Shown here: positions 6,043-64,000 of the stretch, piece after piece
Numbering within the stretch: the first letter of the stretch is position 1
Layout: each line of letters starts with the position of its first letter
From: a virus
Virus record (IMG/VR): IMGVR_UViG_3300046490_000164
Span: 6,170-70,169 of that record
Length of the DNA: 64,000 nucleotides
Direction: 5' to 3' (one strand)
Position numbers and translations under genes: made by a program
The notes under the pieces: model-generated
Told to the model about the DNA's origin: nothing
Seen by the model: the letters and a program-made list of their open reading frames with translations, nothing else
The model's database searches: none

Positions 6043-6357
6043 ATGGATTCGAGGATCTGCGAGGCTTTCGGGGACGAGCTCCAGAAGATCTCTGGAGAGA
6101 TGACTGGCGCCACCCGCATCGGCCGGAAGCCCATCTCCGTGGAGAAGATGCTGGAGAACGAGGCGACCGTGACCGGCCTGCCGGAAGAGTTCGTCCAGCA
6201 GACGATGGCGAAGGCTGCGTCCGCCTTCCTGAAGGTGAGCAAGGTCAGCGGCAAGACCCTGGCCGCTGTCGGCGCAGGCGCTGTGGGTGCCCTGACCGCT
6301 CGCCAGGCCAACGAGGACCGGAAGCTCGGTCGCATGGTCCGCAAGCAGCAGCAGTAG
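6043..6357 (+). CDS. hypothetical protein (104 aa)
   Basis: ORF preceded by an AGGAGG Shine-Dalgarno motif at about 6030. Has a hydrophobic AVGAGAVGALTA segment. Confidence 0.45.
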   Translation: MDSRICEAFGDELQKISGEMTGATRIGRKPISVEKMLENEATVTGLPEEFVQQTMAKAASAFLKVSKVSGKTLAAVGAGAVGALTARQANEDRKLGRMVRKQQQ

Positions 6358-16840: not shown

Positions 16841-16842
16841 CC

Positions 16843-26015: not shown

Positions 26016-29000
26016 ATGATCTCTCTCGCTCTTATCGTTGCAGCAGCTCTAGGGGCTGTAGATTTGTCTCAGGTGGATTGTGCGAAGACGGCGTCTACTC
26101 CGCACAACGACAGCCAACACCTCAGAGCAGTGCAGGACTGGAACCCTATCTGCTTGGGGGTAAAAGAGCTCCAGACCGCGATGATTCTATCGCCACCGAC
26201 GATGAGTCAGAGCGGCGCCACCGTCACCATCACTGGTCCGGCTGGATCGGCCATCTACCACAGAGAAGATGCGGTAGTAGCCGTTGCTGGGGCCTCCGGC
26301 ACCACCTCTTGCGTCTCGCCGTGCGCAGTGGTTGTCGCAGGAAGCACTACGATCTCTGCCGTCGTTACTTTGGATGGACGACTGGCGTCCCCAGCCCTCA
26401 CCCAAGCCTTCAGTGTGGCCGCCGTAGCATGCACCTCCTACACGTACAACTGGGGGGCATGCAGCTCTGGAAGCCAGCCCGGCTCTATCGCTACGCAGTT
26501 GCCATCAGGATGCAACGACACATCGAGTGCGGTTCTTTCCCAGTCCTGCGGAGTCTCGAGCGTGGCGGTCAGCGACCGGACTTTGACCGGCGGTAGCGTT
26601 ACACAGCTCTCTGCGACGGTCACTACGACAGGATCCGTGTCATCCAACGTCTCGTGGTCTTGGGTGAGTGGTGCAGGTAACTCTTCCTCCATCACCTCTG
26701 GCGGTATGTACACGGCGCCGGCCTCCACTGCGTCTATCCAGACAGCAGTAGTGCGCGCTACCTCCACGCAGGACGGCACCAAGTTCGGAACGGCGACGAT
26801 CACGATCCCCGCTACCGTTGTGGCCACAACGGTATCCGTGGCATCTGGCGGTGTGCATGACAGCCTGAGCTACGATCCTGCCGTACATCCAACGTCCTCT
26901 GTAACGTTCTCCGCCACAACGGGGCAGGTCTTGGTTGCCGTGTGCTTCGTCGACGGTACTGGAGATACCTGCACCCCAACCAACGGTTCTGGGGCATCCT
27001 CGTTGGTGTGGACCGTCATCGATTCATCCTCCCAGGCTGGTTACATTGCGGCCTACTGGGCGCGAGTTGGGTCAACCTTGTCGAACGTCACCGTGACTTC
27101 TCCGGCGGCGACCAACAGTGGGACGAACTACCTGCACATCGATGTGTTGGATAACGTCTACACCAGTAATCCACCAATCGGCACGCACAAGGCAGATGGT
27201 GCTAATGGAGTTGCCAAAGCTCCTTCGGAGACGTTGTCCGCGTGCGCCACCGGGTCGATGGTGATGTACAGTGGTGACGTCTGGGCTCTGGGCAGTAAGT
27301 CATCCATGACTGCTGCTGACCTCGTGACCGGTAACAGCAACACCACGATTCTCTCGACGGTTACCAACGACTCCGCTGGAAAGTACGGCTACCAGCCAGT
27401 CAACTACTTCTGGGTCGGCCGCTCCGTGGCCTCGGCCACTGGCGGTGCGGACAGCACGGTCGGAGTTACGCAGCCGGCCACCGGAGGAACGTGGAACGAC
27501 CTTGCCTTCGAAGTGCTCCCATCTTCGTATAACGGAACCTGTTTGGCGGTGGGCGGGAACAGCGGGGGCGGAGGTGGTGGCGGAACAACGGACACGTTCG
27601 TCGCTGGGACGGATACGAACGTTGGAAATTTCGGAGCAGTTGATATCCGTCCAGGTCTGTTGGTCACCGCGGCGCCCGTAGCCACGCAATTCACGGCACT
27701 GCTCGCCAACGCTTGGTCGTATGCGGCCCCAGGTATCCAGGGCATGGCCTGGGCTGTTTATTCCTACCCTGCTGACGGACAGCCCTGTGGGACTGTTGAC
27801 TCTTCTGGCATGTGGACACCGCCGTCTCCGATCGTCCCGCACTCCACAGATCGCACCTGTCTGATTCAAGCTACTTCGACGGCACAACCTACTGCTCGAA
27901 CCTATGCCGCATGGATCCAGCCAGCTAACAACGCTGTGGCTGGTGCGACCTCCATAGTCAACGTGTCGCCGATGGCGACCTATGCCCCCGCTAGCGGGGG
28001 CACGGCTGCATTCACCGCTACTGCTCTAGGCACCTTGGCGTTGAATACGAACACATTCACAACCCCTGCCCCCCCACAGACGTTTGATTGGGCAACCGAC
28101 GTAGGCTCGATCAACTCGAGCGGTAACTGGTCGGCGCCGGGTACTACGTCTGGGTCCATTCGGACCGCTACGGTGACCGCGACACATAGAGCCACTGGCA
28201 AGAAGGCAACTGCGACAGTCACTATCGCCCCAACCGGTGGGTTCACTACCTGGGTTGAGCCTGCGGATCGAGCGACGAAGTGGCAGCCCGGTATCACGTA
28301 CAACGGCGGAATCCCGGCACGCAGCGGAGCCCCCTGCGCTACTGTTACGCCGCTGAACTCTAGCTACAACGGATGGCAGGGTGTCTCGGCGGACAACACC
28401 ACCAGCGACGCTGAACGAATCCAGGCAGCTATCGACTCCTGCGCTCCTGGCGGCGTCGTTCAGCTCACGGACGGCATCTATTACTCAGACTCCCACTCTG
28501 CGAATAAGACATCTGCTCCCTACACCATCATGCTAACGCGCGGCATCACCTTGCGCGGGACTGGCGTATGGAACGGAACCGCCGGTACACAGCTCCAGAA
28601 GAACTTTGGCGCCACAATGGGCAGCTACGCCCCTAGCGTCGTTGCGCCGTCCGGTAACATCCCCGTTGTCCGCATAGAGCCTCCGTTCGCGGGTAACTTG
28701 TCCACGGTAAGCACCTCCTTGAATGTGGACGCGCAGAAGGGCGCGTTGTCCGTGACGGTAGCTGATGCATCGCGCCTAGCTCCAGGGATGTACGTGGTGT
28801 TGGACGAGTTGACCGGAGTAGGCTGGCAGGTAGATCTTGGGGGCAAAGGCATGATCCTCGCCTCCGACGATCGTCGCGTATGGTACCGAACCACCACCCA
28901 GAGGAGCCCTGGCACGGGGGAGTCCGACGTCAATCTTGCTACCGGCAGTGTGTCGGGCTCTGTCGCCGGCTGGTACTCTCGATACGATCGAAAGACTGGA

Positions 29001-30611
29001 GAGTGGAAGAAGATCATATCAGTCGTCGGCAACGTGATTACCTTCGAGACCCCTATCCACATTACGTACAGGGCTGACGCCAAGCATAATGCTCAACTGG
29101 CCTTCTACGTCGGGGATAACGTAGGAGGCGCGTACGTCCCTCACCTCGAAAATGCTGGCATAGAGAACTTGTCGATTACCAACGGCGACGGCGACGGCAT
29201 CGATATGTCTCGTTGTGCGAGCTGCTGGATGAAGAACCTCGATGTATCCAAGAACCTCGGTAGCGTCGTAATCAACGACGGTTACCGCGACGAGCTCCGC
29301 CATCTATACGTACACGACACCGCCTTCCCGCACGACGGAGGCGCCGGGTATGCGATCACATTCAACAGTCAAAGCGCCGACTGTTTGTTGGAGGACTCGA
29401 TCACCTTCAACTTCAACAAGAACATCGCCGAGCGTAACAGCGGCGCAGGCACAGTGGTCGCCTACAACTACTTCGACGCTTCATATGAAGGATATGACTC
29501 CGCGATCGGGACTGGTGGACTCCCCACCTACAACGACAGTGGAACCGGTGGTACGGCCAACTCATGGGTAGAGGTCGGCATGAACGGCTCTCACCTACTC
29601 GGCCCTCACCACACCTTGTTTGAGGGTAACTACTCTCACAACTATGACTCGGACAATACCTGGGGTCCGTCGATCTACATGACTGTGTTCAGGAACCATC
29701 TGTCCGGTTTCCGTGAAGACTTCACCGACACGTTCACCAAGTACAACAACGGTGGTGCCATCAAGGTCTCGTTCTCGGACACGAAGGGTACTATCTCTGC
29801 CAACTACATTCCTTCGGGGCAGACGGTGCCGGTGGACTACCAGTTCCCCAACGTGTCCTTCGGTCCGCAACGCGCTGTTGGCATCATGGCCGGCACCTAT
29901 TGGCACACCATGGTCGGGAACGTGCTGGGCATCAACATGAATAAGCCGTCAAGCTCTACCAACCTGACGGCCGGGTGGGCCTGCGAACGCACCGGGGCCG
30001 CTTACGAGAAGAGCCTATGGAGACTGGGGTGGAGCGTAGGTGATGCGTGGAATGACGTCGATCCGAACGTCAATGCCACCACACTTCGACACGTCAACTA
30101 CGCGGTCAACACTGGTACGTTGGCAGTCGGGACGGGGAACGCGCAGTGCGGTCAGCCGAGCTACAACCCGTCCGCATCACTGTCGGGGCTCGCTACCCTA
30201 CCCAACTCTCTCTACATCACCACTGGCAAGCCGTCCTTCTTCGGCGCCAATGCCTGGCCCTGGGTGGATCCAGTTTCCGGCACCACATCCGTACTGCCTT
30301 CGAAGACGTGTTTCGACGCAGGGGTGCCGTCTTGCGTGTCCGTAGTCCTCGGCACCAGCGGAACACCATCTACGTCTGGTCAGTCCAGGACATTCACGGC
30401 AACCTTGACCGGGGTTATCGCCATGCCAACAGGGACGGTCAACTTCTACGACGGCACCACTCTTCTCGGAACTGGAACCCTCAACGGATCCGGGGTAGCC
30501 ACCTACACCACTTCCGCTCTCACCGTCGGAACCCATTCCATCTACGCAAACTACCTCGGGGATGCTACCAACCCTAGGGCCTCCGCGAAGGTAGTCCAGG
30601 TCGTCAACTAG
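26016..30611 (+). CDS. second giant fibre/depolymerase (1531 aa): shared N-anchor, Ig-like domain, beta-helix module, C-terminal Ig-like (Big_3-type) domain
   Basis: N-terminal about 130 aa, AVDLSQVDCAKTASTPHNDSQHLRAVQDWNPICLGVKELQTA..., is about 65% identical to the N-terminus of the 16843 gene. The beta-helix module carries DAERIQAAIDSC and the PbH1-like block GGAGYAITFNSQSADCLLEDSITFNFNKNIAERNSGAGTVVAYNYFD. The C-terminus TFTATLTG...GTVNFYDGTTLLGTGTL...YTTSALTVGTHSIYANYLGD fits the Big_3 pattern. Confidence 0.75.
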   Translation: MISLALIVAAALGAVDLSQVDCAKTASTPHNDSQHLRAVQDWNPICLGVKELQTAMILSPPTMSQSGATVTITGPAGSAIYHREDAVVAVAGASGTTSCVSPCAVVVAGSTTISAVVTLDGRLASPALTQAFSVAAVACTSYTYNWGACSSGSQPGSIATQLPSGCNDTSSAVLSQSCGVSSVAVSDRTLTGGSVTQLSATVTTTGSVSSNVSWSWVSGAGNSSSITSGGMYTAPASTASIQTAVVRATSTQDGTKFGTATITIPATVVATTVSVASGGVHDSLSYDPAVHPTSSVTFSATTGQVLVAVCFVDGTGDTCTPTNGSGASSLVWTVIDSSSQAGYIAAYWARVGSTLSNVTVTSPAATNSGTNYLHIDVLDNVYTSNPPIGTHKADGANGVAKAPSETLSACATGSMVMYSGDVWALGSKSSMTAADLVTGNSNTTILSTVTNDSAGKYGYQPVNYFWVGRSVASATGGADSTVGVTQPATGGTWNDLAFEVLPSSYNGTCLAVGGNSGGGGGGGTTDTFVAGTDTNVGNFGAVDIRPGLLVTAAPVATQFTALLANAWSYAAPGIQGMAWAVYSYPADGQPCGTVDSSGMWTPPSPIVPHSTDRTCLIQATSTAQPTARTYAAWIQPANNAVAGATSIVNVSPMATYAPASGGTAAFTATALGTLALNTNTFTTPAPPQTFDWATDVGSINSSGNWSAPGTTSGSIRTATVTATHRATGKKATATVTIAPTGGFTTWVEPADRATKWQPGITYNGGIPARSGAPCATVTPLNSSYNGWQGVSADNTTSDAERIQAAIDSCAPGGVVQLTDGIYYSDSHSANKTSAPYTIMLTRGITLRGTGVWNGTAGTQLQKNFGATMGSYAPSVVAPSGNIPVVRIEPPFAGNLSTVSTSLNVDAQKGALSVTVADASRLAPGMYVVLDELTGVGWQVDLGGKGMILASDDRRVWYRTTTQRSPGTGESDVNLATGSVSGSVAGWYSRYDRKTGEWKKIISVVGNVITFETPIHITYRADAKHNAQLAFYVGDNVGGAYVPHLENAGIENLSITNGDGDGIDMSRCASCWMKNLDVSKNLGSVVINDGYRDELRHLYVHDTAFPHDGGAGYAITFNSQSADCLLEDSITFNFNKNIAERNSGAGTVVAYNYFDASYEGYDSAIGTGGLPTYNDSGTGGTANSWVEVGMNGSHLLGPHHTLFEGNYSHNYDSDNTWGPSIYMTVFRNHLSGFREDFTDTFTKYNNGGAIKVSFSDTKGTISANYIPSGQTVPVDYQFPNVSFGPQRAVGIMAGTYWHTMVGNVLGINMNKPSSSTNLTAGWACERTGAAYEKSLWRLGWSVGDAWNDVDPNVNATTLRHVNYAVNTGTLAVGTGNAQCGQPSYNPSASLSGLATLPNSLYITTGKPSFFGANAWPWVDPVSGTTSVLPSKTCFDAGVPSCVSVVLGTSGTPSTSGQSRTFTATLTGVIAMPTGTVNFYDGTTLLGTGTLNGSGVATYTTSALTVGTHSIYANYLGDATNPRASAKVVQVVN

Positions 30612-55142: not shown

Positions 55143-55149
55143 GAAAAGA

Positions 55150-55177
55150 GGAGGGCCCCGATGTTCTGGGGCCCTCC
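55150..55177. terminator. bidirectional rho-independent-type terminator at the convergence of the + and - gene blocks
   Basis: Perfect 10-bp GC-rich inverted repeat GGAGGGCCCC-(8-nt loop gatgttct)-GGGGCCCTCC. The flanks are A-rich on the + strand (aagaaaag), which reads as T-rich for the - strand transcript; ttcta lies 3' on the + strand. It sits between the last + gene (ending 55142) and the last - gene (ending 55199). Confidence 0.6.
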
Positions 55178-55198
55178 TTCTACGTCAGGGGTGCCGGC

Positions 55199-55417
55199 CT
55201 AGTTGACGGCGGCGCTGGCCCCGGCGGAAGAGGCGGGCTGCTTGGCCAGGAGCTTCTCGACCTTGGCCTCGGCCTTCTCGAGCTTCGCGGCGAGCTTCCC
55301 CGCGACCTTGTCGTTCTTGGCGATGAGCTTCTCGATCTGGGTCACGGCCTTCTTGGCCAGCTTGAACTTCTTGGCCGCGGAAACCTTCTTCGCCTTCTTC
55401 ATCTTCTTGGCTGCCAT
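55199..55417 (-). CDS. lysine/alanine-rich histone-H1-like DNA-binding protein (72 aa)
   Basis: Sequence MAAKKMKKAKKVSAAKKFKLAKKAVTQIEKLIAKNDKVAGKLAAKLEKAEAKVEKLLAKQ. The AKK/KKA repeats resemble bacterial H1-like proteins (Hc1/AlgP/BpH1 type). Confidence 0.6.
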   Translation of the reverse strand: MAAKKMKKAKKVSAAKKFKLAKKAVTQIEKLIAKNDKVAGKLAAKLEKAEAKVEKLLAKQPASSAGASAAVN

Positions 55418-55478
55418 GTGGTAGTGCTCCTGCGTGTGGGTGATTCGCCCTTGTCAGTGCCCAGGGCGACGGGCATCT

Positions 55479-55982
55479 TCACTCATCTAGAAGCTGATAG
55501 ATAGCCAATTCACCAGCACCAGGTTGTCTGGTGAAGATGATGGCCTTGAGCTCTTCCGAGGTGCGCACTCGGTAATGTTCGATGCTCCCCTCCTCGGAAC
55601 CTATGAAGACGGCGAACCGAGGAGGGCCAGGGTTGGCTGCGATGAAGTTCTTCAAGACCGGGGCCACGTCCTGGAGGGTGACTCCCATCCCTACCTTCCC
55701 CTGCGTCACTTCCTTCTCGAACACCACTCCGATGACGGCGAGGTCAGCTCGGAACGTGGTGGTGTTCTTCCCGATGGAGAGGTAGAGCACCGTCTCTCCG
55801 GACTTGAACGGGATGATGCGGCGGTCCTTCTCCGTAGGATGTGGCCGCACCGCCCCGAGCTCGAAACCCCAGATGACGAGGTCCCTGATGATGCTCCGCA
55901 ATGACTCGTCGCTGAACCCCGCGGCCCCCTCGACTCGAGCTCTGTACCGCTCGAGCGCGTGGTAGGTGACGGCGATCTTCAT
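55479..55982 (-). CDS. hypothetical protein (167 aa)
   Basis: ORF in series with the other leftward genes. No motif recognised. Confidence 0.5.
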   Translation of the reverse strand: MKIAVTYHALERYRARVEGAAGFSDESLRSIIRDLVIWGFELGAVRPHPTEKDRRIIPFKSGETVLYLSIGKNTTTFRADLAVIGVVFEKEVTQGKVGMGVTLQDVAPVLKNFIAANPGPPRFAVFIGSEEGSIEHYRVRTSEELKAIIFTRQPGAGELAIYQLLDE

Positions 55983-56114
55983 CGCCCATCCCTCGCAGCC
56001 ACCGCCGAGTTCACGATACGGGTGAGGATGGTCGTCCTCTTCGTGCCGATGGGGATGACGATGCTCAGCGCCTGGTCCGCGAACTCGATGAGCTGCTCAT
56101 CCGTCATCCCCATC
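55980..56114 (-). CDS. possible very small ORF (about 44 aa) filling the gap between 56224..57126 and 55479..55982
   Basis: Reverse-strand reading gives MGMTDEQLIEFADQALSIVIPIGTKRTTILTRIVNSAVAARDGR with an ATGA overlap to the downstream start. Too short to be sure. My base count in this area is uncertain by 1 nt. Confidence 0.25.
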
Positions 56115-56223
56115 AGGTCGGAGTCGTTGATGGAGATGAAGGTGTTCGGGGAGACTGTGTTGGGACGCCGGTGGGGAGACGGCTCAGCGACCGCCGTCTC
56201 CCTCTCCTTCCTGGCCGACGTCC

Positions 56224-57126
56224 CTACTTGGGGTTTCCGACGAACTGCACCATGTACTGCCGGAACTGGTCGAACGTCTGGACCCCGGCCTTCTGGAGCG
56301 CCTGCCCGCCGGCCTGGTTCATGGCGTAGAGGTGGTGCATGACGGCGAGCATCTGGAGGCAGATGGTGCGGAGGTCCTCCTGCTCGTCGACGATGCCGTC
56401 GATCTTCTTCTCGAGCTCGTTGCCCTGCGTCCCGACCGCGTCGATGCGGACGAGCAGCGGGGACAGGTCGACCGCCCCGGTTGGGGGGCTCACCTGCATC
56501 GGGGCCTGCATCACCGCCGGCGGGGCGATGGTCATCGGGACAGAGTACCCCTGCGCGGCCGGGGCCGGCACGGGGGCCATCATCTGGGGCGGGGCCTGGA
56601 GGGCGGGAGGCGCCCCCGGGGCCATCTGCTGCGCGCCCTGAGCCGCCTGGGCGCTCCGGCGCTTACGGCCCGTCGGAGCGGCGGGCTGGGCGTCCTGCGT
56701 CGCCTGGGCGGGCTGCTGGGCCGCCTGGGCGGCCGCCGCCGGCGAGGCCACCGCCGGCGCCACGGGGTACTGGGGAGGGGCGGTGACCGGCACCATCTGC
56801 TGCGGCATCCCCATCTGGGGGGCATACCCCGGAGGGACCCCGTTCTGGGGGGCCATCTGCGGGATGCCGGCGGGCGCAGCCGCCGCGGCACCGATGTCGT
56901 TCACGAGCAGCCCCAGGGCGATCTCGTGCGAGATGATGACCTGCTTCACCTTCTCGCGGTCGTCGAGCGTCTCCTGGTACGTCATCAGCGCCTGGCCGTC
57001 CGACTTCTTGTAGATCATGTACGCCAGGTTGCGGACGGCGACGAAGCGGGCACTGTCGAGCTCCGCCTTCCGCTGCGAGGCCGTGCTGCCCTGGCGCGGT
57101 GCGAGCTCGTAGACTGTCTCAGCCAT
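56224..57126 (-). CDS. hypothetical protein (300 aa) with a central Pro/Gln/Ala/Met-rich intrinsically disordered region of about 170 aa
   Basis: Structured N-terminal (about 95 aa) and C-terminal (about 85 aa) domains flank a low-complexity stretch, APQMGMPQQMVPVTAPPQYPVAPAV...QAPPQMMAPVPAPAAQG. Confidence 0.55.
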   Translation of the reverse strand: MAETVYELAPRQGSTASQRKAELDSARFVAVRNLAYMIYKKSDGQALMTYQETLDDREKVKQVIISHEIALGLLVNDIGAAAAAPAGIPQMAPQNGVPPGYAPQMGMPQQMVPVTAPPQYPVAPAVASPAAAAQAAQQPAQATQDAQPAAPTGRKRRSAQAAQGAQQMAPGAPPALQAPPQMMAPVPAPAAQGYSVPMTIAPPAVMQAPMQVSPPTGAVDLSPLLVRIDAVGTQGNELEKKIDGIVDEQEDLRTICLQMLAVMHHLYAMNQAGGQALQKAGVQTFDQFRQYMVQFVGNPK

Positions 57127-57337
57127 TCTCTTCCTCTCCTTCTTCGTGGGTGGCGGCGAGCATGGCCCGGATGGCCATGTGCTCCCCGTACTTCGTCATC
57201 GTGGTCAGTCTTGCCAGGTACACCGGCTCTGGCACTCCCTCGAACAGCGTGCAGGTGTAGCTCTGAAGAATCCTCTCTTCGTTCGTCTCTCGACAGGCGC
57301 CGAGCTTTGCGCAGGCGAGGCACTCGCCCCTGGTCAT
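57119..57337 (-). CDS. small Cys-containing protein (72 aa), acidic C-terminus
   Basis: C-x2-C-x5-C cluster (ECLACAKLGAC) plus YTC. Tiled with its neighbours, overlapping by 8 nt. Confidence 0.45.
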   Translation of the reverse strand: MTRGECLACAKLGACRETNEERILQSYTCTLFEGVPEPVYLARLTTMTKYGEHMAIRAMLAATHEEGEEENG

Positions 57338-57657
57338 CAGTCCGTTCTCACCGTCGTCTCGTTCGGCGCGAAGCAGAGCGCGTGACGGCCGTCAGAGCAG
57401 GGGTACGTCGAGCACATGCCGGTGCACCCAGGGAGCTGGCTGCGGATCTGCTCGATGTGTTTCAGGATGTGGGCCTCCAACTTGGCCCTGGTCTGGATCG
57501 TCCCCGAGAGGTGCTCTGCCGAGGGGTCCATCTCCCCAGCCACGATGGCCTCGAGGGTCCTGCGGTCCAGCCCTCTTCGAAGTCTCGGCAGCCCTTGCCT
57601 GAGCGCCAAGGCAATGAGCTCCGACTCGTTGCAGTTCTTCAGGAGCTCGTCACTCAC
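57337..57657 (-). CDS. small hypothetical protein (106 aa) with a C-terminal Cys cluster
   Basis: Cys cluster PGCTGMCSTYPCSDGRHALC. Its start overlaps the upstream stop. Confidence 0.45.
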   Translation of the reverse strand: MSDELLKNCNESELIALALRQGLPRLRRGLDRRTLEAIVAGEMDPSAEHLSGTIQTRAKLEAHILKHIEQIRSQLPGCTGMCSTYPCSDGRHALCFAPNETTVRTD

Positions 57658-58129
57658 TTTCGTCCTCCTCGAGCAGAGACTTCATGATGCGGTGCCACCT
57701 GCCATACCATCCCGATCTGCCCTTGTCCGCACCCAAATCGTCGAGCTCTTCCTTGGTGGGGCAACTGGAGCAGAAGGGGAACGGTCTCTGGGAGCACAGC
57801 GCCCTTTCGACCGGAACGTAAGATACAGGTGGCGAACCATTCATCCTGTCAGCTTCACTCCCCCAGCGGGGACACGACAGGATTTCGTATGGGTCAGCGG
57901 GTACCGACTTGAAGATGAGCGTGAAGGTTTGGTGCGGACAGTAGGCGCAGCCTGCGAACGGGTGGTGAAGACATGCCGCTCGGTGCTGCGTCTGCATGAT
58001 ACTGGGGTCCGTCGGGTCCGGCCTGCATACGACGTTGGTGCCTGCTCCGAGGACCCCAGTCCTCACCTGCCGCTCCCTTGCTTCCAACTCACTCTCCTCA
58101 GTCAGCGTCTCAGGAGAGATGTGGTTCAC
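57650..58129 (-). CDS. Cys-rich putative zinc-binding protein (159 aa)
   Basis: Eight or more Cys, including CAYC and CSSC (C-x2-C pairs), with an acidic tail EEDESE. Confidence 0.5.
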   Translation of the reverse strand: MNHISPETLTEESELEARERQVRTGVLGAGTNVVCRPDPTDPSIMQTQHRAACLHHPFAGCAYCPHQTFTLIFKSVPADPYEILSCPRWGSEADRMNGSPPVSYVPVERALCSQRPFPFCSSCPTKEELDDLGADKGRSGWYGRWHRIMKSLLEEDESE

Positions 58130-58144
58130 ACGATTCAGTCCTCC

Positions 58145-58606
58145 TCACAGGAGAATGCCCTGCTGCACGGGAGGGACACCGAAGTCCTCTTCCCGAACCT
58201 GTTGGATGTACATCTCGATGCGTGGGTCGGTGGGGTCCATGTGCTTCTCCTGGGTCCCCACCAGGAAGTGCGAGTCGTCGACCCCGACGAAGTCCCGTAT
58301 GCAGTCCGTCAAGAGCTTAATGCGGTTGTCCAGGTCGAAACGCTTATACCGCTCTTTCGCGCGTTTTGATGCCTTCACCGCGGGGTTGTTCCACGTCTCG
58401 TTGATGATGGTCGGGAAGAAGAAGCGGAGGTGCAGAGCGTAGACCCTATCCGGCTCGAAGATGCCGGGCTGGAGCATATGGCCGTAGTTCTGCATCATGA
58501 ACTTCGAGAAGTCCTCCGCGTACTTCCTGGCCACCGTCGTGAGCGAATTCCTGAAGTACAGCCTGTTGGAACTCGGGGGGAAGCCCCGGTAGGTGAAGAG
58601 GATCAT
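58145..58606 (-). CDS. rusA: RusA-family Holliday-junction resolvase
   Basis: N-terminal YRGFPPSSNRLY matches RusA LPWPPSNNRYY. The catalytic block RFDLDNRIKLLTDCIRD matches RusA RRDLDNLQKAAFDALT (Asp-x-Asp-Asn...Lys...Asp). Confidence 0.75.
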   Translation of the reverse strand: MILFTYRGFPPSSNRLYFRNSLTTVARKYAEDFSKFMMQNYGHMLQPGIFEPDRVYALHLRFFFPTIINETWNNPAVKASKRAKERYKRFDLDNRIKLLTDCIRDFVGVDDSHFLVGTQEKHMDPTDPRIEMYIQQVREEDFGVPPVQQGILL

Positions 58607-59013
58607 TCGGTCAGGTCCTCGTCCCCGAGCAGAGGCCGTCCTCCCAGGTTCTGCTCACCGGCTCCGAGGAGCTTCAGGTTGGGCATGTCGTAGGGCTTGT
58701 ACTCGATGACCTTCTTCTCGAACGTCTCGCTCGACACCCTCCGGGTCTTGCCGAGCATCTCCGAGAACATCTTGCTGGCCTGAATCGCCTCCTTGGAGAG
58801 GAGGCTCTTCGGGAGGCTGTAGCCGTACCGTACCCAGGACTCGCCCCTGTCCCTGCCGTGGCTGCACGGTCCGCGGGTGTAGAGGCTGCCTCCATACTGG
58901 GCGATGACCTTCTCGATGCCCTGACGGATGACGTCCTGGTCGGTGGTGCCCCTGTAGATGGTCTCGAGGATCCTGCTGATCTCTTCCCGCTTCCTCGCCT
59001 TGCGGGCTTCCAT
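58603..59013 (-). CDS. hypothetical protein (about 137 aa)
   Basis: C-terminal part of track ORF 58603..59877. The upstream part of that frame is the Arg-rich antisense of thyX, so it was trimmed to the first ATG (MEARKARKREEISRILETIYRG...) just downstream of thyX. Confidence 0.45.
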   Translation of the reverse strand: MEARKARKREEISRILETIYRGTTDQDVIRQGIEKVIAQYGGSLYTRGPCSHGRDRGESWVRYGYSLPKSLLSKEAIQASKMFSEMLGKTRRVSSETFEKKVIEYKPYDMPNLKLLGAGEQNLGGRPLLGDEDLTE

Positions 59014-59033
59014 CTTGTCCAGGAGCCAGGTGA

Positions 59034-59852
59034 TCACTTGGGGCTCTCCGGTTGGATGTCCTCGTCGGTGAGCACCCGGAGGTTGGCCGTATTCTTGAGA
59101 GCCTCCTTGTAGACGGCGAAGAGGTCCTCCTTGTGCGGCCGCGCCTTGGAGAGAGGGCAGGCCATGTAGGCCTTCTTGTCCTCGTCGCAGTAGCCGAGAC
59201 GGTGCTCCCCGCACTTCGGCTGCATGTTGGCTGCCAGCTCGGGGACAGCCTTGCGAACCGCGGCGCGCATGAGGCCGACCATGTACCGGATCTCCCACTG
59301 CGCCCGGTGGCAGAGCCGGAGGTCGCAGATGTGGAGGAGCTCGGCGTAGTTCACCATGATCTGGAAGTTCGTCGGCATCGCGTTGGGGAAGACGAAGCGG
59401 GCGTCCTCTGCCGGGATGCCGTTGTCGAGCAGGAGCTGGTAGGTCTTCCCTGCGGTCTCCATCGCCTGCTGGTAGGCCATCTGCACCTCCAGGCTGGCCT
59501 TCTCGATGAGCGGCGGTGTGAGGAACTCGAACTTCCCTGGCTTGTACTTCACGTAGCGCTGTGACTGCTGCTCGAAGCTGATGCCGATGCGGTGGCGCAC
59601 CAGCTGGTGCGAGAGGGCGCGCGACACGCCGCTGATGCCGAACCAGAAGACCACCTGCTCGAGCGGGGAAACGTGGCCGGTCTTGAGCCGCTCGGTCACG
59701 AAGTTGGTGACGCTCTCCCCGGTGACCTCCTGGTTGTTCAGCTCGTCCCACACCTCTCGAGGCGTCTTGGCGGTGTAGCAGGTGCGGTACGCCCCATACA
59801 GCTTCATCAGCGGGTCGCGGGCGTGGTCGATGAGTACGACGTCGATTGCCAT
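59034..59852 (-). CDS. thyX: flavin-dependent thymidylate synthase ThyX
   Basis: ThyX signature RHR-x7-S-x-RY is present: LVRHRIGISFEQQSQRY. Length of 272 aa is typical. Confidence 0.8.
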   Translation of the reverse strand: MAIDVVLIDHARDPLMKLYGAYRTCYTAKTPREVWDELNNQEVTGESVTNFVTERLKTGHVSPLEQVVFWFGISGVSRALSHQLVRHRIGISFEQQSQRYVKYKPGKFEFLTPPLIEKASLEVQMAYQQAMETAGKTYQLLLDNGIPAEDARFVFPNAMPTNFQIMVNYAELLHICDLRLCHRAQWEIRYMVGLMRAAVRKAVPELAANMQPKCGEHRLGYCDEDKKAYMACPLSKARPHKEDLFAVYKEALKNTANLRVLTDEDIQPESPK

Positions 59853-59974
59853 GAGTGGCTCTTTCGAATGTTGTCAACCGCCCAGAGCGGTTGGAGGTTG
59901 GTGTAGTGACATGCCTCGAGAAACTGCTTGCGATCGGTGAGATCGAAGAGGGCCGGTGGCTTCTTCCTCGCCAT
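59807..59974 (-). CDS. possible small ORF (about 55 aa) overlapping the thyX 5' end
   Basis: MARKKPPALFDLTDRKQFLEACHYTNLQPLWAVDNIRKSHS..., preceded by GGAGG, with a TGATG overlap to the upstream gene's stop. The 45-nt overlap with thyX makes it doubtful. Confidence 0.25.
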   Translation of the reverse strand: MARKKPPALFDLTDRKQFLEACHYTNLQPLWAVDNIRKSHSWQSTSYSSTTPATR

Positions 59975-60195
59975 CACTTCCTCCTCGTCAGCATCCCGAG
60001 GGTGTCAGCCGCGGCACGCACCGGGTTACCGTCGGTAGGGTAGTTGTCGTTCACGAACTTCAGGGCATCCTCTTGCGTCATCGAGGTGATGCGAGTCAGG
60101 TTCTGGAGGACGGCGATGTGCCTGGTCTTGTCGTCGTACCTGTAGACCGTCAACATCTTGCCGTCGTCGGACAAGGTCCAGGCGATGCGGTCCAT
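59974..60195 (-). CDS. small hypothetical protein (about 73 aa)
   Basis: C-terminal ATG-initiated part (MDRIAWTLSDDGKMLTVYRYDD...) of track ORF 59974..60627. The rest of that frame overlaps the better-supported 60204..60662 gene. Confidence 0.4.
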   Translation of the reverse strand: MDRIAWTLSDDGKMLTVYRYDDKTRHIAVLQNLTRITSMTQEDALKFVNDNYPTDGNPVRAAADTLGMLTRRK

Positions 60196-60203
60196 GTCGT
60201 CTC

Positions 60204-60662
60204 CTACAGCTTGTCCTGCTTCGTGTCGTCGAGGGAGAGCTCGAAGAGGGCAACCACGCCCCACAGAGCGTGGGCCAGGTGCGCCTTGCCGCTCTCCTTG
60301 TCGAGCCACTCCCCCTGCCGCCACGCAATGAGGTGCCGCATGGTGGCGTTGAAGTAGCGGTCGATGGGCGTCTCCCCGGTCTCCGGATCGGTGGGGACGT
60401 CCCTCCACGAGTTGGCCGCGTACTTCCTGGCTCCGTACTCGTAGATGCCGGCCAGCGCGGTGACGGCGCGCCAGGGGATGAGATGGAATCCCCCTGGCTT
60501 GCCTCCCGACGCCTTGCGGGCTTTCGCGTCCGAGCACTCGCACGCCTTGTGGGTGTCCGCCTCGGTGTTGAACTCGATGAACCCGCACGTCTTGCCGATG
60601 TGCTTGTCGTGGCCACAGCTTGGGCAACGACTCAGGTCCAGCCCCGTCGGTGTGATGTCCAT
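60204..60662 (-). CDS. dATP/dGTP pyrophosphohydrolase-like (MazZ-like phage nucleotide pyrophosphatase) domain protein with an N-terminal Zn-ribbon
   Basis: FHLIPWRAVTALAGIYEYGARKYAANSWRDV fits the phage family signature (K/R)xxLDLIPPEALxxLARVxxFGAxKYGxxNW. The N-terminal Cys cluster is CPSCGH...C...CEC. This frame was chosen among three overlapping track ORFs. Confidence 0.55.
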   Translation of the reverse strand: MDITPTGLDLSRCPSCGHDKHIGKTCGFIEFNTEADTHKACECSDAKARKASGGKPGGFHLIPWRAVTALAGIYEYGARKYAANSWRDVPTDPETGETPIDRYFNATMRHLIAWRQGEWLDKESGKAHLAHALWGVVALFELSLDDTKQDKL

Positions 60663-60668
60663 ATCACC

Positions 60669-61268
60669 TCATCCGCGCCGGACGAACGAGCGCCCGGTCT
60701 GCATTGGGATCCCTGCCACGTTGGTCTCTCTTCCGATGCGCTGCACTTCCTGGCCGCGCTGGGTGATACGGCGAGAGACGGTCTCCCAGTCTCTCTGGGC
60801 CTTGTCCCTCATCGTGCGCGTGAGGATATAGAGGCTCGAGGCGTAGAGGTCGCTCGACTTCGCCTCCACCACTCGAGGATCCGTCTCGACCCGGTCGTTC
60901 TTGTCCTGGGAGGTGAGCTTCTTCCCGTCCTCGTCTGCCTTCAGGGCGATACGGACCCTGGCCTTGGTGAAATCGAGGTGGGCCTTGGCCGCATCCTGCT
61001 GGATGCTGGCCTTCGCCAACTCGCTCTCGATGAAGGCGCACCAGGCGGAGAGGTTGTTGAGGATGTCCCCCAGCTCCTCGTCGTCCAGTGACGTGATGGT
61101 GGAGGGCATCTCCCCCCGGTAGCCGCTTCTCGGCGCCCCAGCGAGCGTGAGTCCTTGCGACTGGATGTACTTCATTGCATCAGCGGGCGGCCCCATGAGT
61201 CTGGTCTTGCCGGTGTCGAGATCCTCCGGCGGCCGCAAGTCGAGACGTCCAAGCACTCCTCCTGCCAT
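60669..61268 (-). CDS. hypothetical protein (about 200 aa); predicted helical/coiled-coil; recombination-mediator candidate
   Basis: Track ORF trimmed to the ATG at 61268, which abuts the upstream stop at 61271. No motif recognised. Confidence 0.45.
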   Translation of the reverse strand: MAGGVLGRLDLRPPEDLDTGKTRLMGPPADAMKYIQSQGLTLAGAPRSGYRGEMPSTITSLDDEELGDILNNLSAWCAFIESELAKASIQQDAAKAHLDFTKARVRIALKADEDGKKLTSQDKNDRVETDPRVVEAKSSDLYASSLYILTRTMRDKAQRDWETVSRRITQRGQEVQRIGRETNVAGIPMQTGRSFVRRG

Positions 61269-61270
61269 GA

Positions 61271-62143
61271 CTACCTCCGCGCCGTGAGCGACTTCTGAGT
61301 TCCTCTGTAGGCCGGGCACCCGTAGGCATACGGGCACTGCTGACAGTGGTACCCAGTCGTCGCCTGTGGCTCTTGCTCGCTCTCGTAGTACCCGAGGAGG
61401 AGGCGAGCTTTCTCCTCCAAGGGCTGCCACATGCCCGGGTCGTACTGAACCGGGTAGTCGGACATGTTGGAGTCGTTCTTGTTCACGTAGAGGTAGACGA
61501 CGACCGGGCGGTCGAGCAGACGGCCGTAGATGGTGGCCTGGCGGAGGTGCTCAGGCTTCGGCTTCGTCAGCTTCTGGAAGTTCTCCTGCTTGATCGTCTT
61601 GTACTCGTGGATGATGCCCAGCTCGTAGATGGGGGAGTTGGGGATGTCGTCGATGATGAGGATGTTCTCCGCATCAGCACTCCCCACGACGAAGAGCTCT
61701 CCGGCCAACATCGAGGTGGTGCTGTTGATCCTGGACTCCGGGGTATACATCGCGCCCCAGGCACCCTTCATCCCGTAGGTCTGGAGCATGTGGTGCACCG
61801 CGTGGCCAATGTCGAAGGTGAAGAGCGTCCTCGACTCGTGCTTCTCCTGGCCTTCCCGTCCCTCCATCTCCCAGTAGACCTTCAGGAGGCAAGCGTGGGG
61901 GAGCTGGGACGGGTGGATGCCTGGGTACCGCGGCTCGGAAAGGACGTGCCCACGCCCCTCGCACTTCGAGCACGGCACCCACTTCGCCTGGTCCGTCGGG
62001 GCCGGCTTGGTCTGCTCGTACTCCCTACGCCACTTCAGCAGCCTGTCCTTCAGCTTGATGTGCTGGAGGATGACGCTCCTCACCTCCGGCGGCTGGGCGA
62101 GCCACTGGGAGATGTGGTGCAGGATGACGGTAGGTCGACTCAT
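61271..62143 (-). CDS. Cas4/RecB-like PD-(D/E)xK nuclease with a four-Cys (Fe-S type) cluster
   Basis: Core motifs ...ILIIDDIPN... and ...ELGIIHEYKT (E-x-K). The Cys arrangement is one N-terminal CSKC pair plus C-terminal C-x2-C-x5-C (CQQCPYAYGC), as in Cas4/AddB nuclease domains. Confidence 0.55.
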   Translation of the reverse strand: MSRPTVILHHISQWLAQPPEVRSVILQHIKLKDRLLKWRREYEQTKPAPTDQAKWVPCSKCEGRGHVLSEPRYPGIHPSQLPHACLLKVYWEMEGREGQEKHESRTLFTFDIGHAVHHMLQTYGMKGAWGAMYTPESRINSTTSMLAGELFVVGSADAENILIIDDIPNSPIYELGIIHEYKTIKQENFQKLTKPKPEHLRQATIYGRLLDRPVVVYLYVNKNDSNMSDYPVQYDPGMWQPLEEKARLLLGYYESEQEPQATTGYHCQQCPYAYGCPAYRGTQKSLTARR

Positions 62144-62289
62144 GCCGAAGCTCCCATTGGTGCGGTTCGTACCTCGAGCACGACCCCATACCGGAGACCC
62201 GCGCAGCGCCCCAGTGCGTGGCCGTAGACTATGAAGTCACCGGGCTCCAGCTCCCGCCCGGACTTGTCTCGCATGATCGGGGCGGTCAT
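62140..62289 (-). CDS. small hypothetical protein (about 49 aa)
   Basis: Track ORF trimmed to the ATG at 62289, which forms an ATGA overlap with the upstream stop. Confidence 0.3.
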   Translation of the reverse strand: MTAPIMRDKSGRELEPGDFIVYGHALGRCAGLRYGVVLEVRTAPMGASA

Positions 62290-62636
62290 TTGTTCATCTC
62301 CCGCATGGCAGCGAGGTAGTACTCGAACTGGTGCCACTCGATGACGGCCAGCTTCGTGTTGAACCCTGCCTGCCCCTGGAACTCGATCTGCATGACAGGG
62401 GTCTCTCCGAACTGCGATGCCTCGTTGCGGATCTTGTTCCAGGTGTCGATGCTCAGGGTGTAGCTCCGGCGAGAGGTGGTCTTGGCCTCCGCACGAATCT
62501 CCCCCTGCACCCTGACATCGCCCTTGTGTGAGGGCGAGTCGGTCGCTCCGGATGCCTTGGTGACGTTCCCACCGAGGCTGCGAGCCAGCCGGCCTTCCTG
62601 CCGCCGGCTGACCCGCTGATTGAAGCTCCTCGGCAC
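62286..62636 (-). CDS. Hjc/Mrr-like PD-(D/E)xK nuclease (archaeal-type Holliday-junction-resolvase-like)
   Basis: RRQEGRLARSLGGNVTKASGA...KGDVRV...IRAEAKTT parallels Hjc ERELVRLLEKKGFAVVRSAGSKG..PDLVAG...YLAIEVKST (Ser-Ala-Gly-Ser, Asp, Glu-x-Lys). Confidence 0.45.
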   Translation of the reverse strand: MPRSFNQRVSRRQEGRLARSLGGNVTKASGATDSPSHKGDVRVQGEIRAEAKTTSRRSYTLSIDTWNKIRNEASQFGETPVMQIEFQGQAGFNTKLAVIEWHQFEYYLAAMREMNK

Positions 62637-62638
62637 GG

Positions 62639-62863
62639 CTAGATGTCCTGGGACTTCAGCGTGCCGCGTCCGTTGTCGGAGCAGCGCGCCTCGGCCTTGT
62701 GGATGAGGTTGACGATCTCGGAGTTGAGCGCGTCGAAGAACTCCGCGGAGATCTTGAAACCACTGCTCTTGGCGATGATCTCCCGGACCCTGGCCTCGAT
62801 GACGGCCTTGGTCTGCTCCGTCTTCCCCGGCTTGCTCTCGACCGCTGCGGTGACGTCGGACAT
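62639..62863 (-). CDS. histone-fold protein (74 aa; archaeal/bacterial histone-like)
   Basis: AVIEARVREIIAKSSGFKISAEFFDALNSEIVNLIHKAEARCSDNGRGTLKSQDI aligns with archaeal HMfB [56 protein letters not shown]. Trimmed from track ORF 62639..63232 to the ATG just after the RecA-like stop. Confidence 0.55.
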   Translation of the reverse strand: MSDVTAAVESKPGKTEQTKAVIEARVREIIAKSSGFKISAEFFDALNSEIVNLIHKAEARCSDNGRGTLKSQDI

Positions 62864-62865
62864 GG

Positions 62866-64000
62866 TTATCGCTTCCATTCGTAGGTGAGCTTGATGTCCC
62901 GAGCCTTGTAGGCCATGGCGCGAATGCGCCGCATCAAGGTGTTGTGGTCTCCGACAGCGAGCCGGGCTTGCTCGTCGTCGTACAGCTCTTGCACGAAGGC
63001 ATCCATGCCGCAGGCCTTCAACAGCGGGTTCTTCGGGTCTTCCGGATTGTGGAGGGTGTACCAGGCGCCGGCCTGCTCCACGAGCTGGTGGCGCGCAGCG
63101 AAGAGGGCAGCGTCGGTGTAGATGTCGACGTTGTCTCTTGCCCAGACCGGGCTGCGATCGTCGTTGAAGTAGTACAGCCAGGACCCACGACCCCCTTCGT
63201 GGATGCCGGCCTTCCCCTTCTTGATCTCCCAATTCACTTCCTTGCCGTAGATCTCTCGACGCTGACGCTGGCCTCCCTTCACAGGGTCACGCTGCATCGT
63301 GTCCTCGTGGATGGTCTGGCCAGGAGAGAGGTAGATGTCGAGGAACTTGGCGTGCTCCAGCGCGTGCCCGCCGGTCTGCTTGTAGGGTGCATCCGGGTTC
63401 TTCTGGTCGTCGCGGATCTGGTTCACGACGATGACACAGGGGTCTCGGACGGTGCCGTCCGGGGCATCGGACATCAGCATGGGCGAGATCTTGTGAATGA
63501 ACTGGGTGTTCACCACCGAGGACCCGCCGCGGGTCTTGTCGTGCAGCGATTCGTTGCTGGCCTCCTGCTCGCTCATCACGTTGCCGACGCTGTCGATGGC
63601 GATGATGTGGTAGGCGTTGTGGTAGACGCCGTCGAGAACAGCCTGGTAGAGGTCCTCACCGGAGTAGGCCACGACCTCGTGGAAGGTCCCGACCTGCCGA
63701 CGCATGTCGTCGATCCGCTCCTTCGGGAGGTGCGTACCGTCCTGCTTGAATTGGGCCCGGTCGAACTCCTCGATCATCGTCTCCGAGTAGGCGAGGATGA
63801 GACCGGCTCGTCTGGCCTGCGAGACGTCCACGTGCATCTCGTTCATGGCGAACATGGCCGAGAGTCGGTCGCCCAGGATGGCCTGGAGCATCGCCATCGC
63901 ACGCAGGTAGAGCCAGGTCTTCCCGCAGTTGCGTCTTCCGATGAGCTGCGTGATGCCGGCGCAGGGGAAGCCGCCACCGAGCTCCACGTCGAGCGAGACG
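62866..64000 (-). CDS. RecA/UvsX-like recombinase, 5'-truncated by the window edge
   Basis: LGGGFPCAGITQLIGRRNCGKTWL parallels RecA [24 protein letters not shown] (Walker A). HIIAIDSVGNVMSEQE parallels RecA LIVVDSVAALTPKAEIEG. KQTGGHALEHAKFLDIYL parallels RecA TTGGNALKFYASVRLDIRR. The frame stays open to nt 64000. Confidence 0.7.
   Translation of the reverse strand, partial: VSLDVELGGGFPCAGITQLIGRRNCGKTWLYLRAMAMLQAILGDRLSAMFAMNEMHVDVSQARRAGLILAYSETMIEEFDRAQFKQDGTHLPKERIDDMRRQVGTFHEVVAYSGEDLYQAVLDGVYHNAYHIIAIDSVGNVMSEQEASNESLHDKTRGGSSVVNTQFIHKISPMLMSDAPDGTVRDPCVIVVNQIRDDQKNPDAPYKQTGGHALEHAKFLDIYLSPGQTIHEDTMQRDPVKGGQRQRREIYGKEVNWEIKKGKAGIHEGGRGSWLYYFNDDRSPVWARDNVDIYTDAALFAARHQLVEQAGAWYTLHNPEDPKNPLLKACGMDAFVQELYDDEQARLAVGDHNTLMRRIRAMAYKARDIKLTYEWKR

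Follow-up and report, generated by a model that had tools for sequence, protein, structure and literature searches.

The stretch of DNA analysed here, hereafter the window (64,000 nucleotides, positions 6,170 to 70,169 of IMG/VR record IMGVR_UViG_3300046490_000164), raises the question of what purpose a histone serves in a phage, and whether a second, Lys/Ala-rich protein acts together with it. Both ORFs reported by the initial annotation, 62639..62863 and 55199..55417, are present on the minus strand.

ORF 62639..62863(-) encodes an alpha3-truncated histone of the prokaryotic face-to-face (FtF) type, of 74 aa. Its ATG is located 2 nt past the stop codon of the RecA-like gene, and its GC3 is 0.95. 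The JGI call of the same ORF, named 'histone H3/H4', is 5 codons longer; the ATG at 62863 is supported because the homologues start with MS[DE]xTA. In the AF2 model, a disordered tail (residues 1–19) precedes alpha1 (23–34) and alpha2 (40–63), which are joined by L1 (35–39); L2 (64–70) is followed by an alpha3 of 3 residues (71–73). The RxTxxxxD motif is R66/T68/D73; R60 and N64 are, by alignment, the tetramer residues; and Cys61 is part of an 'RC' motif. The C-terminus lies one residue past the Asp of RxTxxxxD, as in most members of the family.

The product of this gene has a histone fold, together with the family motifs and a conserved gene position. The initial annotation had proposed this fold, and the proposal is borne out by a high fold probability and by conservation of the ORF in related phages. 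Against the PDB, phmmer with the single protein retrieved HTkC (9F2C, E 4.5e-5) and HLp (9QT0, E 2.8e-3), and the family profile retrieved HLp (2.3e-19), HTkC (7.8e-16) and HBb (3.6e-11), with weaker matches to HmvA (6.5e-5) and HMfA (0.04). The AF2 model presented a pLDDT of 76 overall and of 80–92 across the fold. Its top 9 Foldseek matches in the PDB were HTkC, HBb or HLp (TM 0.84–0.91, rmsd 0.9–1.3 A), and nearly all the lower PDB matches shown were also histone-fold proteins. R66, T68 and D73 are invariant in family alignment A1, with R60 and N64 at least 90% conserved; in alignment A2, T68 reaches at least 90% conservation and the other four residues, R60, N64, R66 and D73, do not vary. 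Positions R60/N64/R66/T68/D73 correspond to R48/N52/R54/T56/D61 of the FtF logo (PMC11390915). HTkC R45, which is needed for tetramer formation (bioRxiv 10.64898/2025.12.06.692711), aligns with R60, and the HLp DNA contacts K15/K17/K21/T57 align with R25/R27/K32/T68, which are conserved.

Other searches returned little. No Pfam or PHROG model matches the window histone itself; the word-index homology search returned only the query; and the BFVD fold search gave weak matches only, all of them longer metagenomic phage proteins or giant-virus histones. The tblastn search with two histones of the clade found nothing in 50,697 deposited phage genomes, and a pattern scan with alignment A4 had no match in metagenome_contigs or among 185,579 species genomes, alignments A1 and A3 being too variable as scan patterns for some collections.

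The phage protein belongs to the alpha3-truncated histones of the FtF class, alongside archaeal HTkC and Leptospira HLp. Alpha3-truncated prokaryotic histones are recognised by an alpha1-L1-long alpha2-L2 arrangement, seen here in the AF2 model and in Foldseek; by an alpha3 of 3–4 residues, here a turn at 71–73 before the end at 74; and by RxTxxxxD (Schwab 2024), here R66/T68/D73. The Arg and Asn of the FtF dimer-dimer interface are found at the aligned R60 and N64. The earlier remark that alpha3 is missing or minimal was correct: a reduced alpha3 is what defines the alpha3-truncated family.

Like HTkC (Thermococcus kodakarensis, 9F2C) and HLp (Leptospira perolatii, 9QT0-2), to which it is 30–32% identical, the phage histone has a single fold with a 3-residue alpha3 and RxTxxxxD, ends one residue past the motif Asp, and superposes as a model at ~1 A. 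It has Arg where HTkC has R45, Asn as in HLp, and basic alpha1 residues at the HLp DNA-contact positions. Unlike both, it is phage-encoded and carries a 19-residue non-basic N-terminal tail; its net charge is 0, against about +2 to +3; its alpha1 has Arg instead of Lys, with Glu flanks (subfamily signature (V/I)IEARVRE); and the Cys61 'RC' motif sets it apart. In cells, HTkC and HLp serve as abundant chromatin proteins; the phage gene, by contrast, lies within a recombination operon.

The best-fitting published category is that of the viral face-to-face histones (VFFH) of Liu et al. 2024 (bioRxiv 10.1101/2024.12.06.627149), described there as Caudoviricetes-encoded FtF-like alpha3 histones with Lys-rich N-terminal tails of 5–40 residues. 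The disordered 19-aa tail of the phage histone differs from these in having 3 Lys, 2 Glu and 1 Asp, for a net charge of 0. The VFFH survey is computational, and the sections of the preprint consulted report no RecA-histone-Hjc linkage or co-occurring HU gene. Four other classes were considered and rejected. The 'phage histones' of Schwab et al. 2024 (PMC11390915; e.g. A0A2E7QIQ9), named VTTH by Liu et al., likewise have an alpha3-type fold and come from tailed phages, but they carry a C-terminal tetramerisation helix and are without RxTxxxxD, while the window protein stops at alpha3 and contains this motif. HBb/Bd0055 of Bdellovibrio bacteriovorus (8CMP, 8FVX), a 'bacterial dimer' histone, shares the truncated fold (rmsd 0.9 A) and the motif; its class is without the R48/N52 residues, HBb having Glu/Asp where the phage histone has R60/N64. 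Archaeal nucleosomal histones of the HMfB type need an alpha3 of ~10 residues and a longer alpha2, against 3 residues here and an E of only 0.04 for HMfA. The DUF1931 pseudodimeric class needs two folds per chain, against a single fold in 74 aa with no Pfam DUF1931 match. FtF histones are known in Planctomycetota, Myxococcota, Bdellovibrionota and Spirochaetota (PMC11390915). In Actinomycetota, an H1-like basic tail was observed fused to the FtF fold.

The histone gene lies, as the initial annotation had noted, between a RecA-like gene (PHROG 97) and an Hjc-like gene (PHROG 2002). The first encodes a UvsX/RecA-like recombinase (62866..64000, minus strand, 3′ part; the full gene, of 458 aa, runs past the window end; E 4e-27) with at most 28% identity to cultured phages. 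The second, directly downstream of the histone, encodes a Holliday-junction resolvase of 116 aa (62286..62636, minus strand; E 6e-21). A Cas4/PD-(D/E)XK-type exonuclease of 290 aa (61271..62143, minus strand) is a conserved member of the module, and the same block holds another junction resolvase, a RusA-family protein of 153 aa (58145..58606, minus strand). An HU/IHF gene (1138..1395 of L001; PF00216, 33.0 bits against a gathering cut-off of 22.4), which is conserved in relatives, lies just beyond the window end and two genes upstream of the histone. That the window is viral rests on the replication-module families and on the relatedness to IMG/VR viral contigs, since PHROG and Pfam scans of the large plus-strand ORFs revealed no capsid, portal or terminase, and megablast of the region against the 50,697 deposited phage genomes found nothing.

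The gene order PolA-HU-Zn ribbon-RecA-histone-Hjc-Cas4 is common to six related lineages of uncultured phages and is kept in L002/L017, L007, L008/L013, L012 and L015. The larger of the related IMG/VR phage contigs have 138–209 kb, and the carrier contig has 134 kb. In the distant L005, too, RecA and histone are paired, and there the histone lies between RecA and Mre11/Rad50. The gene is relocated in two lineages, L011 and L019; it was not found in the +/-10-kb loci searched in L010 and L014, and in the short contigs L016 and L020 the junction is without it. Being missing or relocated in some relatives, the histone is not a core replication factor.

The phage histone has a net charge of 0 and a pI of 6.6. 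The pI is 5.0–6.6 in all clade members, against 9.1–9.5 in HLp, HTkC and HBb over the aligned portions; therefore, its affinity for DNA may be low, or it may act on something other than DNA. In the closest subfamily (alignment A3), E23 does not vary; it occupies a DNA-contacting helix end, where HLp has A13. Between sister phages, the dN/dS of the histone is 0.80 versus 0.02–0.49 for the neighbouring genes, a pattern that fits a host-interaction gene as well as an architectural gene. The substitutions cluster on alpha2, the tetramer and L2 elements are fixed, and alpha1 is identical. Judged by its context, the gene is dispensable and able to move within its module; it evolves fast, and its product is unusually non-basic among histones.

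The explanation that we favour, and consider probable, is that this is a true alpha3-truncated FtF histone of an uncultured large phage, acting as an accessory architectural factor in the infected cell. On the pattern of its homologues HTkC and HLp, two chains would pair into a histone-fold dimer and two dimers would close into a toroidal tetramer, to which N64 would contribute. A salt bridge would link R60 to the C-terminal carboxylate of the opposite dimer, and this would account for the chain having to stop at I74. The same homology suggests that DNA would be bound without sequence preference through alpha1 R25/R27/K32 and L2 T68, and wrapped round the torus, about 60 bp of it in HLp. The histone would in this manner bend or wrap the replicating and recombining phage DNA. 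Action inside the infected cell is most likely because the recombinase stop is 2 nt away, the resolvase is next and HU is nearby; a role as a virion packaging protein is unlikely.

A histone acting in the infected cell might instead be directed at the host, binding its chromosome or displacing its nucleoid proteins and thereby compacting or silencing host DNA early in infection. HLp expressed heterologously reorganises the E. coli nucleoid (PMC12701072), and the phage gene lies in a non-structural block and shows the accessory status and rapid evolution often seen in host-directed genes. Yet its ATG follows the recombinase stop so closely inside a replication/recombination module, and not among early host-shutoff genes, that such a takeover is unlikely, and the neutral charge of the protein also makes it a poor candidate for coating a chromosome in bulk.

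The way the gene is present, absent or relocated among relatives, with the highest dN/dS of the module, also resembles the behaviour of counter-defence genes, and wrapping by the histone could hide phage DNA from restriction enzymes, CRISPR and other DNA-sensing defences. We regard this shield as rather improbable, since no defence or anti-defence genes were recognised beside the histone, the gene appears co-expressed with an enzyme, and at ~60 bp per tetramer, if as in HLp, a very high copy number would be needed.

There is a slim chance that the histone-fold protein does not bind DNA and serves as a protein-protein adaptor, for example a recombinase cofactor or a poison subunit co-assembling with a host FtF histone. 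The low pI of the clade and the clustering of sister-phage substitutions on alpha2, with the tetramer and L2 elements fixed, are consistent with such a role, and any of the FtF-bearing phyla listed above could be the host (PMC11390915). Nevertheless, the conservation of R25, R27 and K32, basic residues aligned with HLp contacts, and the identity of alpha1 between sister phages speak against it.

The second ORF, 55199..55417(-), encodes a Lys/Ala-rich protein of 72 aa (the AKK protein), and no gene follows it in the leftward block. The ORF is preceded by an AGGAG Shine-Dalgarno, and an intrinsic terminator (55178..55149, minus strand; 11-bp stem with 9 GC pairs, then a T-run) closes the block. 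A plus-strand ORF over the same gene (55203..55424) was rejected, having no Shine-Dalgarno, no terminator and an odd Phe/Ser/Ala/Leu-rich product; its GC3 is equally high because its third codon positions coincide with those of the AKK gene. The protein has 20 Lys (28%) and 19 Ala (26%), a pI of 10.4, and the highest Lys content of the 550 window ORFs (12% for the next). Residues 3–24 are basic and non-amphipathic, with 11 Lys (charge of +8 to +9 over the first 18–24 residues, muH 0.08–0.17); an amphipathic coiled-coil-like helix extends from there to residue 59, followed by a disordered Ala/Ser/Gly tail. AF2 predicts a single 58-residue helix (residues 2–59), and the coiled-coil matches are all sub-threshold. 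A membrane-active cationic peptide ('disruptin'-like) is unlikely, since the Lys-rich N-terminus is non-amphipathic and no lysis genes were recognised nearby.

The AKK protein shares its Lys/Ala-rich composition and high pI with histone H1, chlamydial Hc1/Hc2 and other bacterial nucleoid proteins, but differs from H1/Hc1/Hc2 in having no winged-helix globular domain, a predicted continuous helix and a coiled-coil-like C-terminal two-thirds. It gave no match at E<=1 to PF00538 (Linker_histone), PF07432 (Hc1) or PF07382 (HC2), and nothing was found by the word-index homology search or by tblastn against the 50,697 deposited phage genomes. The AKK repeats are missing from the sister-phage orthologues. 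The H1/Hc1-like assignment of the initial annotation is accordingly not upheld: this is a separate small coiled-coil protein, with a lineage-specific poly-Lys/Ala N-terminus, and its coiled coil may hold a basic region that binds nucleic acid. Nor is the 'chromatin-like pair' supported in the form proposed: the two genes are 7.2 kb apart, relative L007 has the histone without an AKK gene at the expected block end, and the conserved second nucleoid-protein gene is HU. Nothing ties the AKK protein to the histone.

That the two form a functional pair, with the AKK protein supplying in trans the H1-like basic tail that the neutral histone is without, is very unlikely. Cellular homologues do fuse AKK/TAKK-repeat tails of about 45–65 residues to the same FtF fold, and four of the fused proteins, among them P0082 (Egicoccus sp.), P0085 and P0079, match Pfam HC2; the strongly charged, non-amphipathic AKK N-terminus would suit such a tail. 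Both genes occur in the window, in L008/L013 and in L012, but these three co-occurrences are all in closely related phages, and the AKK likeness is one of low-complexity composition, not of homology. The distance between the genes, the repeat-free sister orthologues and the L007 arrangement argue against the pair too. It is also doubtful, though somewhat less so, that the neutral fast-evolving FtF histones of the clade, rather than being generic DNA compactors, would be specialised partners of the UvsX-type recombinase and the resolvase on recombination intermediates, or antagonists co-assembling with host FtF histones, with the AKK protein of this phage perhaps an H1-like tail in trans.

Alpha3-truncated histones were recognised only in 2023–2025, and the members found in the literature with experimental study are HBb, HLp and HTkC, none of them viral. 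The claim that such proteins are barely described in phages stands in part: in silico catalogues of phage alpha3 histones already exist (PMC11390915; bioRxiv 10.1101/2024.12.06.627149), while our literature search found no experimental study of any of them, and the word histone is absent from a 2026 review of jumbo-phage biology. The histone described here adds a member whose context is informative. The locus is a clean phage example, with a fixed recombinase-resolvase position and HU in the same operon, and it combines low charge and fast evolution with natural variants in relatives, where the gene is relocated or not found. It thus makes testable the purpose of a histone in a phage replication and recombination factory.

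The two ORFs of the initial annotation are real, and both lie on the minus strand of the leftward block, at 62639..62863 and 55199..55417. The first encodes a protein of 74 aa, its ATG follows the stop codon of the RecA-like gene after 2 nt, and its GC3 is 0.95. The JGI annotation, which labels the gene 'histone H3/H4', places the start five codons further upstream; the ATG at 62863 is favoured, since the homologues open with MS[DE]xTA.

Used alone, the window histone matches HTkC of Thermococcus kodakarensis (9F2C, a crystallised face-to-face histone; E 4.5e-5) and HLp, the tetrameric Leptospira histone (9QT0; E 2.8e-3), with weaker matches to Bdellovibrio HBb and archaeal HmvA. An exhaustive phmmer search of 1.84 billion representative proteins returned 67 relatives at E<1e-3, none of which, except the protein itself, exceeds 50% identity. 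The profile of the family matches HLp (2.3e-19), HTkC (7.8e-16), HBb (3.6e-11), HmvA (6.5e-5) and HMfA (0.04). Pfam and PHROG models gave no match to the window histone itself; among 38 family members, sub-threshold matches were to DUF1931 in 22 and to CBFD_NFYB_HMF in 17. The AlphaFold2 model, built from the family alignment, presents a disordered tail (residues 1-19), alpha1 (23-34), alpha2 (40-63) and a three-residue alpha3 (71-73), with pLDDT of 80-92 over the histone fold. In a Foldseek search of the PDB, the best nine matches to this model were HTkC, HBb or HLp chains (TM 0.84-0.91, rmsd 0.9-1.3 A), and nearly all of the lower matches listed were histone-fold proteins too. The histone fold proposed initially is thus upheld by sequence, profile and model, and can be sharpened to a phage-encoded FtF-type (face-to-face) alpha3-truncated histone.

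The alpha3-truncated histones are defined by an alpha3 of 3-4 residues and a shortened alpha2, and have been divided into FtF tetramers, bacterial dimers and minor types; one of the latter, the 'phage histones', has a C-terminal tetramerisation helix and no RxTxxxxD motif (Schwab et al. 2024, PMC11390915). In the window histone the RxTxxxxD motif is formed by R66, T68 and D73, and R60 and N64 occupy the positions R48 and N52 of the FtF logo. HBb-type dimers, in contrast, are without these two residues. In HTkC, the equivalent of R60 is Arg45, which forms a salt bridge with the carboxylate at the C-terminus of the facing dimer; the R45A variant forms dimers (bioRxiv 10.64898/2025.12.06.692711). 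Nearly every single-fold relative stops at the same C-terminal residue, and the need of an Arg45-type salt bridge for that carboxylate would explain why family members end one residue past the Asp. The contacts of HLp with DNA include, among others, K15, K17, K21 and T57 (PMC12701072), which align with R25, R27, K32 and T68 of the window histone. Because of the motif, the R60/N64 pair and the aligned DNA-contact residues, the protein carries every sequence-level feature of the FtF class, and tetramer formation and DNA wrapping are predicted for it. It is not a 'phage histone' in the sense of Schwab and coworkers, as it has the RxTxxxxD motif and ends at alpha3; by their respective criteria, it is neither an HBb-type dimer, nor a nucleosomal histone, nor a DUF1931 pseudodimer. 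The best fit is with the 'viral face-to-face histones' bearing N-terminal tails in a 2024 preprint (10.1101/2024.12.06.627149), although the tail of the window histone is not Lys-rich as those tails are described there.

A 3.7-kb JGI contig, identical to the window end across 1,876 shared bases, adds 1.8 kb and gives the gene order PolA, HU, zinc ribbon, a 458-aa RecA/UvsX-like gene, histone and resolvase. The HU-family gene (85 aa, minus strand; PF00216 with 33 bits, which exceeds the cut-off) lies at 1138..1395 of L001, the coordinates covering this stretch, or ~244-500 bases past window position 64000. The small zinc-ribbon gene is located between it and the recombinase, directly upstream of the latter. 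The HU gene was found in every related contig spanning its position, so in this phage clade a single operon encodes both HU and a histone. The downstream genes in the window encode a Cas4-type exonuclease, a dGTP/dATP pyrophosphohydrolase-like protein, ThyX and RusA. The same block contains two different Holliday-junction resolvases, one of the RusA family (58145..58606, minus strand) and one of PHROG 2002 (62286..62636, minus strand). At its N-terminus the RecA/UvsX-like protein is extended by ~75 residues, Lys/Ala-rich at their start (MPPRKKVEQAEPAPKAAKTVAEKREAAAAKKKKDQ...) and encoded past the window end at L001 1579..1830. The product of the gene at 56224..57126 (minus strand; 300 aa) has a long central low-complexity region rich in Pro, Gln, Ala and Met; homologues of 30-62% identity occur in the relatives, and it has no family match. 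A 56-aa ORF at 59807..59977 (minus strand) contains 'NLQPLWAVDNIRK', which we take to resemble the C-terminal motif of HNH endonucleases, and may be a remnant.

The relatives recovered in searches with the histone and with the recombinase alignment include IMG/VR viral contigs (138-209 kb) and a number of metagenome fragments, among which the module is colinear with protein identities of 30-69%. Conservation in related phages had been named initially as a test of the histone, and the ORF is kept in them: it directly follows the recombinase in the window and in the loci L002/L017, L007, L008/L013, L012 and L015, and occupies the distal end of the block in two related lineages, L011 (19465..19650) and L019 (9533..9778). 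In a more distant phage, L005, the homologue sits between RecA and Mre11/Rad50. The histone was not found within +/-10 kb in L010 and L014, nor in the short contigs L016 and L020; the recombinase-resolvase gap of L010 holds an acidic ORF of 82 aa (11240..11488). Since it is relocated in two lineages and not found in these four loci, the histone gene has the behaviour of an accessory gene that can move.

No homologue of the histone was detectable in any deposited phage genome, and the recombinase is at most 28% identical to those of cultured phages. Scans of the window, its plus-strand block included, turned up no family for capsid, portal or terminase, so the assignment to phages rests on the families of the replication module and on kinship with IMG/VR viral contigs. 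The plus-strand block includes very large ORFs: those at 12437..16840 (1467 aa) and 16750..25992 (3080 aa) each encode an apiosidase-like glycoside-hydrolase domain (E ~1e-40) and a collagen-binding-type domain, and that at 26016..30611 (1531 aa) encodes Ig-like and beta-helix domains.

For the histones of the clade, taken together with the two more remote homologues L005 and L003, pI ranges from 5.0 to 8.1 and net charge from -2 to +1; in the window, L002, L007, L008, L012, L011 and L005, the histone is neutral to acidic, at pI 5.0-6.6. HLp, HTkC and HBb, the three alpha3 histones studied by experiment, reach pI 9.1-9.5 over the aligned portions. Between the sister phages L008 (11361..11546) and L012 (11358..11543), the histone shows 21 non-synonymous and 8 synonymous changes, a dN/dS of 0.80, which is the highest among the genuine genes in 20 kb; the others range from 0.02 to 0.49 (HU 0.09, RecA 0.19). 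Substitutions are mostly in alpha2 and otherwise in L1 and the N-terminus, while alpha1 is unchanged and L2-alpha3 differs by a single Ser/Thr exchange immediately ahead of the motif Asp. The histone therefore evolves fast, on small counts from one pair that are compatible with neutrality, and its core is under constraint, since the motif is invariant across 30%-identical sequences. The neutral charge, the dispensability and the fast evolution would also suit a protein for takeover of the host nucleoid, which we consider unlikely; they would also suit shielding of phage DNA against defences, a rather unlikely role, and for a histone-fold protein with a non-DNA or host-histone-directed function, which is improbable.

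The ORF at 55199..55417 has an AGGAG ribosome-binding site and is followed by a strong intrinsic terminator (55178..55149). Lys accounts for 20 and Ala for 19 of the 72 residues of its product, whose pI is 10.4; no other of the 550 ORFs in the window comes close to it in Lys content. A word-index search detected no homologue, and the H1, Hc1 and HC2 models gave no match; coiled-coil matches were sub-threshold only. One continuous helix is predicted for residues 2-59, with disorder in the tail beyond it; the first 24 residues are basic throughout without being amphipathic, and ~13-60 are amphipathic and coiled-coil-like. Close to the end of the corresponding block, L008/L013 and L012 have an ORF of 60-71 aa with 20-22% Lys, which has a terminator to itself and a ribosome-binding context like that of the window ORF. 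It aligns gaplessly with the AKK protein (score 74; composition-preserving shuffles give 39.6 +/- 6.5, and no more than 1 of 3000 attains this score), lacks the AKK repeats, and shows a dN/dS of 0.47 between L008 and L012. In L007 the terminator directly follows the preceding gene, and no such ORF is present at the block end. The AKK protein, which the initial annotation had taken for an H1/Hc1-like partner of the histone in a chromatin-like pair, is not a member of that family: the helix prediction, the alignable orthologues without repeats and the absence of model matches indicate a real, fast-diverging, putative small coiled-coil protein, whose poly-Lys/Ala N-terminus is specific to the lineage of the window phage. 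Binding of nucleic acid by a basic region held by the coiled coil is plausible. The pair is thus unsupported, and the conserved companion of the histone is the HU gene just outside the window. One lead for the original intuition is found in cellular homologues: P0082 (Egicoccus sp. AB-alg2), P0085, P0079, P0073 and P0023 have Lys-rich N-terminal tails of ~45-65 residues fused to a face-to-face histone fold. The tails of the first four consist of AKK/TAKK repeats, and P0082, P0085 and P0079 also match Pfam HC2 (PF07382). Judged by sequence, these proteins are natural fusions of an H1-like tail with a histone; the likeness of the tails to the AKK protein is compositional and not a matter of homology.

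We propose that the histone acts inside the cell on phage DNA that is undergoing replication and recombination. As in HLp and HTkC, its chains would form dimers and then a closed tetramer, which would wrap roughly 60 bp non-specifically. The histone fold, the FtF signature residues, the position of its ATG 2 nt after the recombinase stop and a neighbourhood kept among relatives, which includes HU and two junction resolvases, are established. Computational catalogues of phage alpha3 histones exist since 2024; in the literature we found no experimental study of one, and the word histone is absent from a 2026 jumbo-phage review. Because of its conserved position between recombinase and resolvase, the histone of this phage is a good candidate for experiment.
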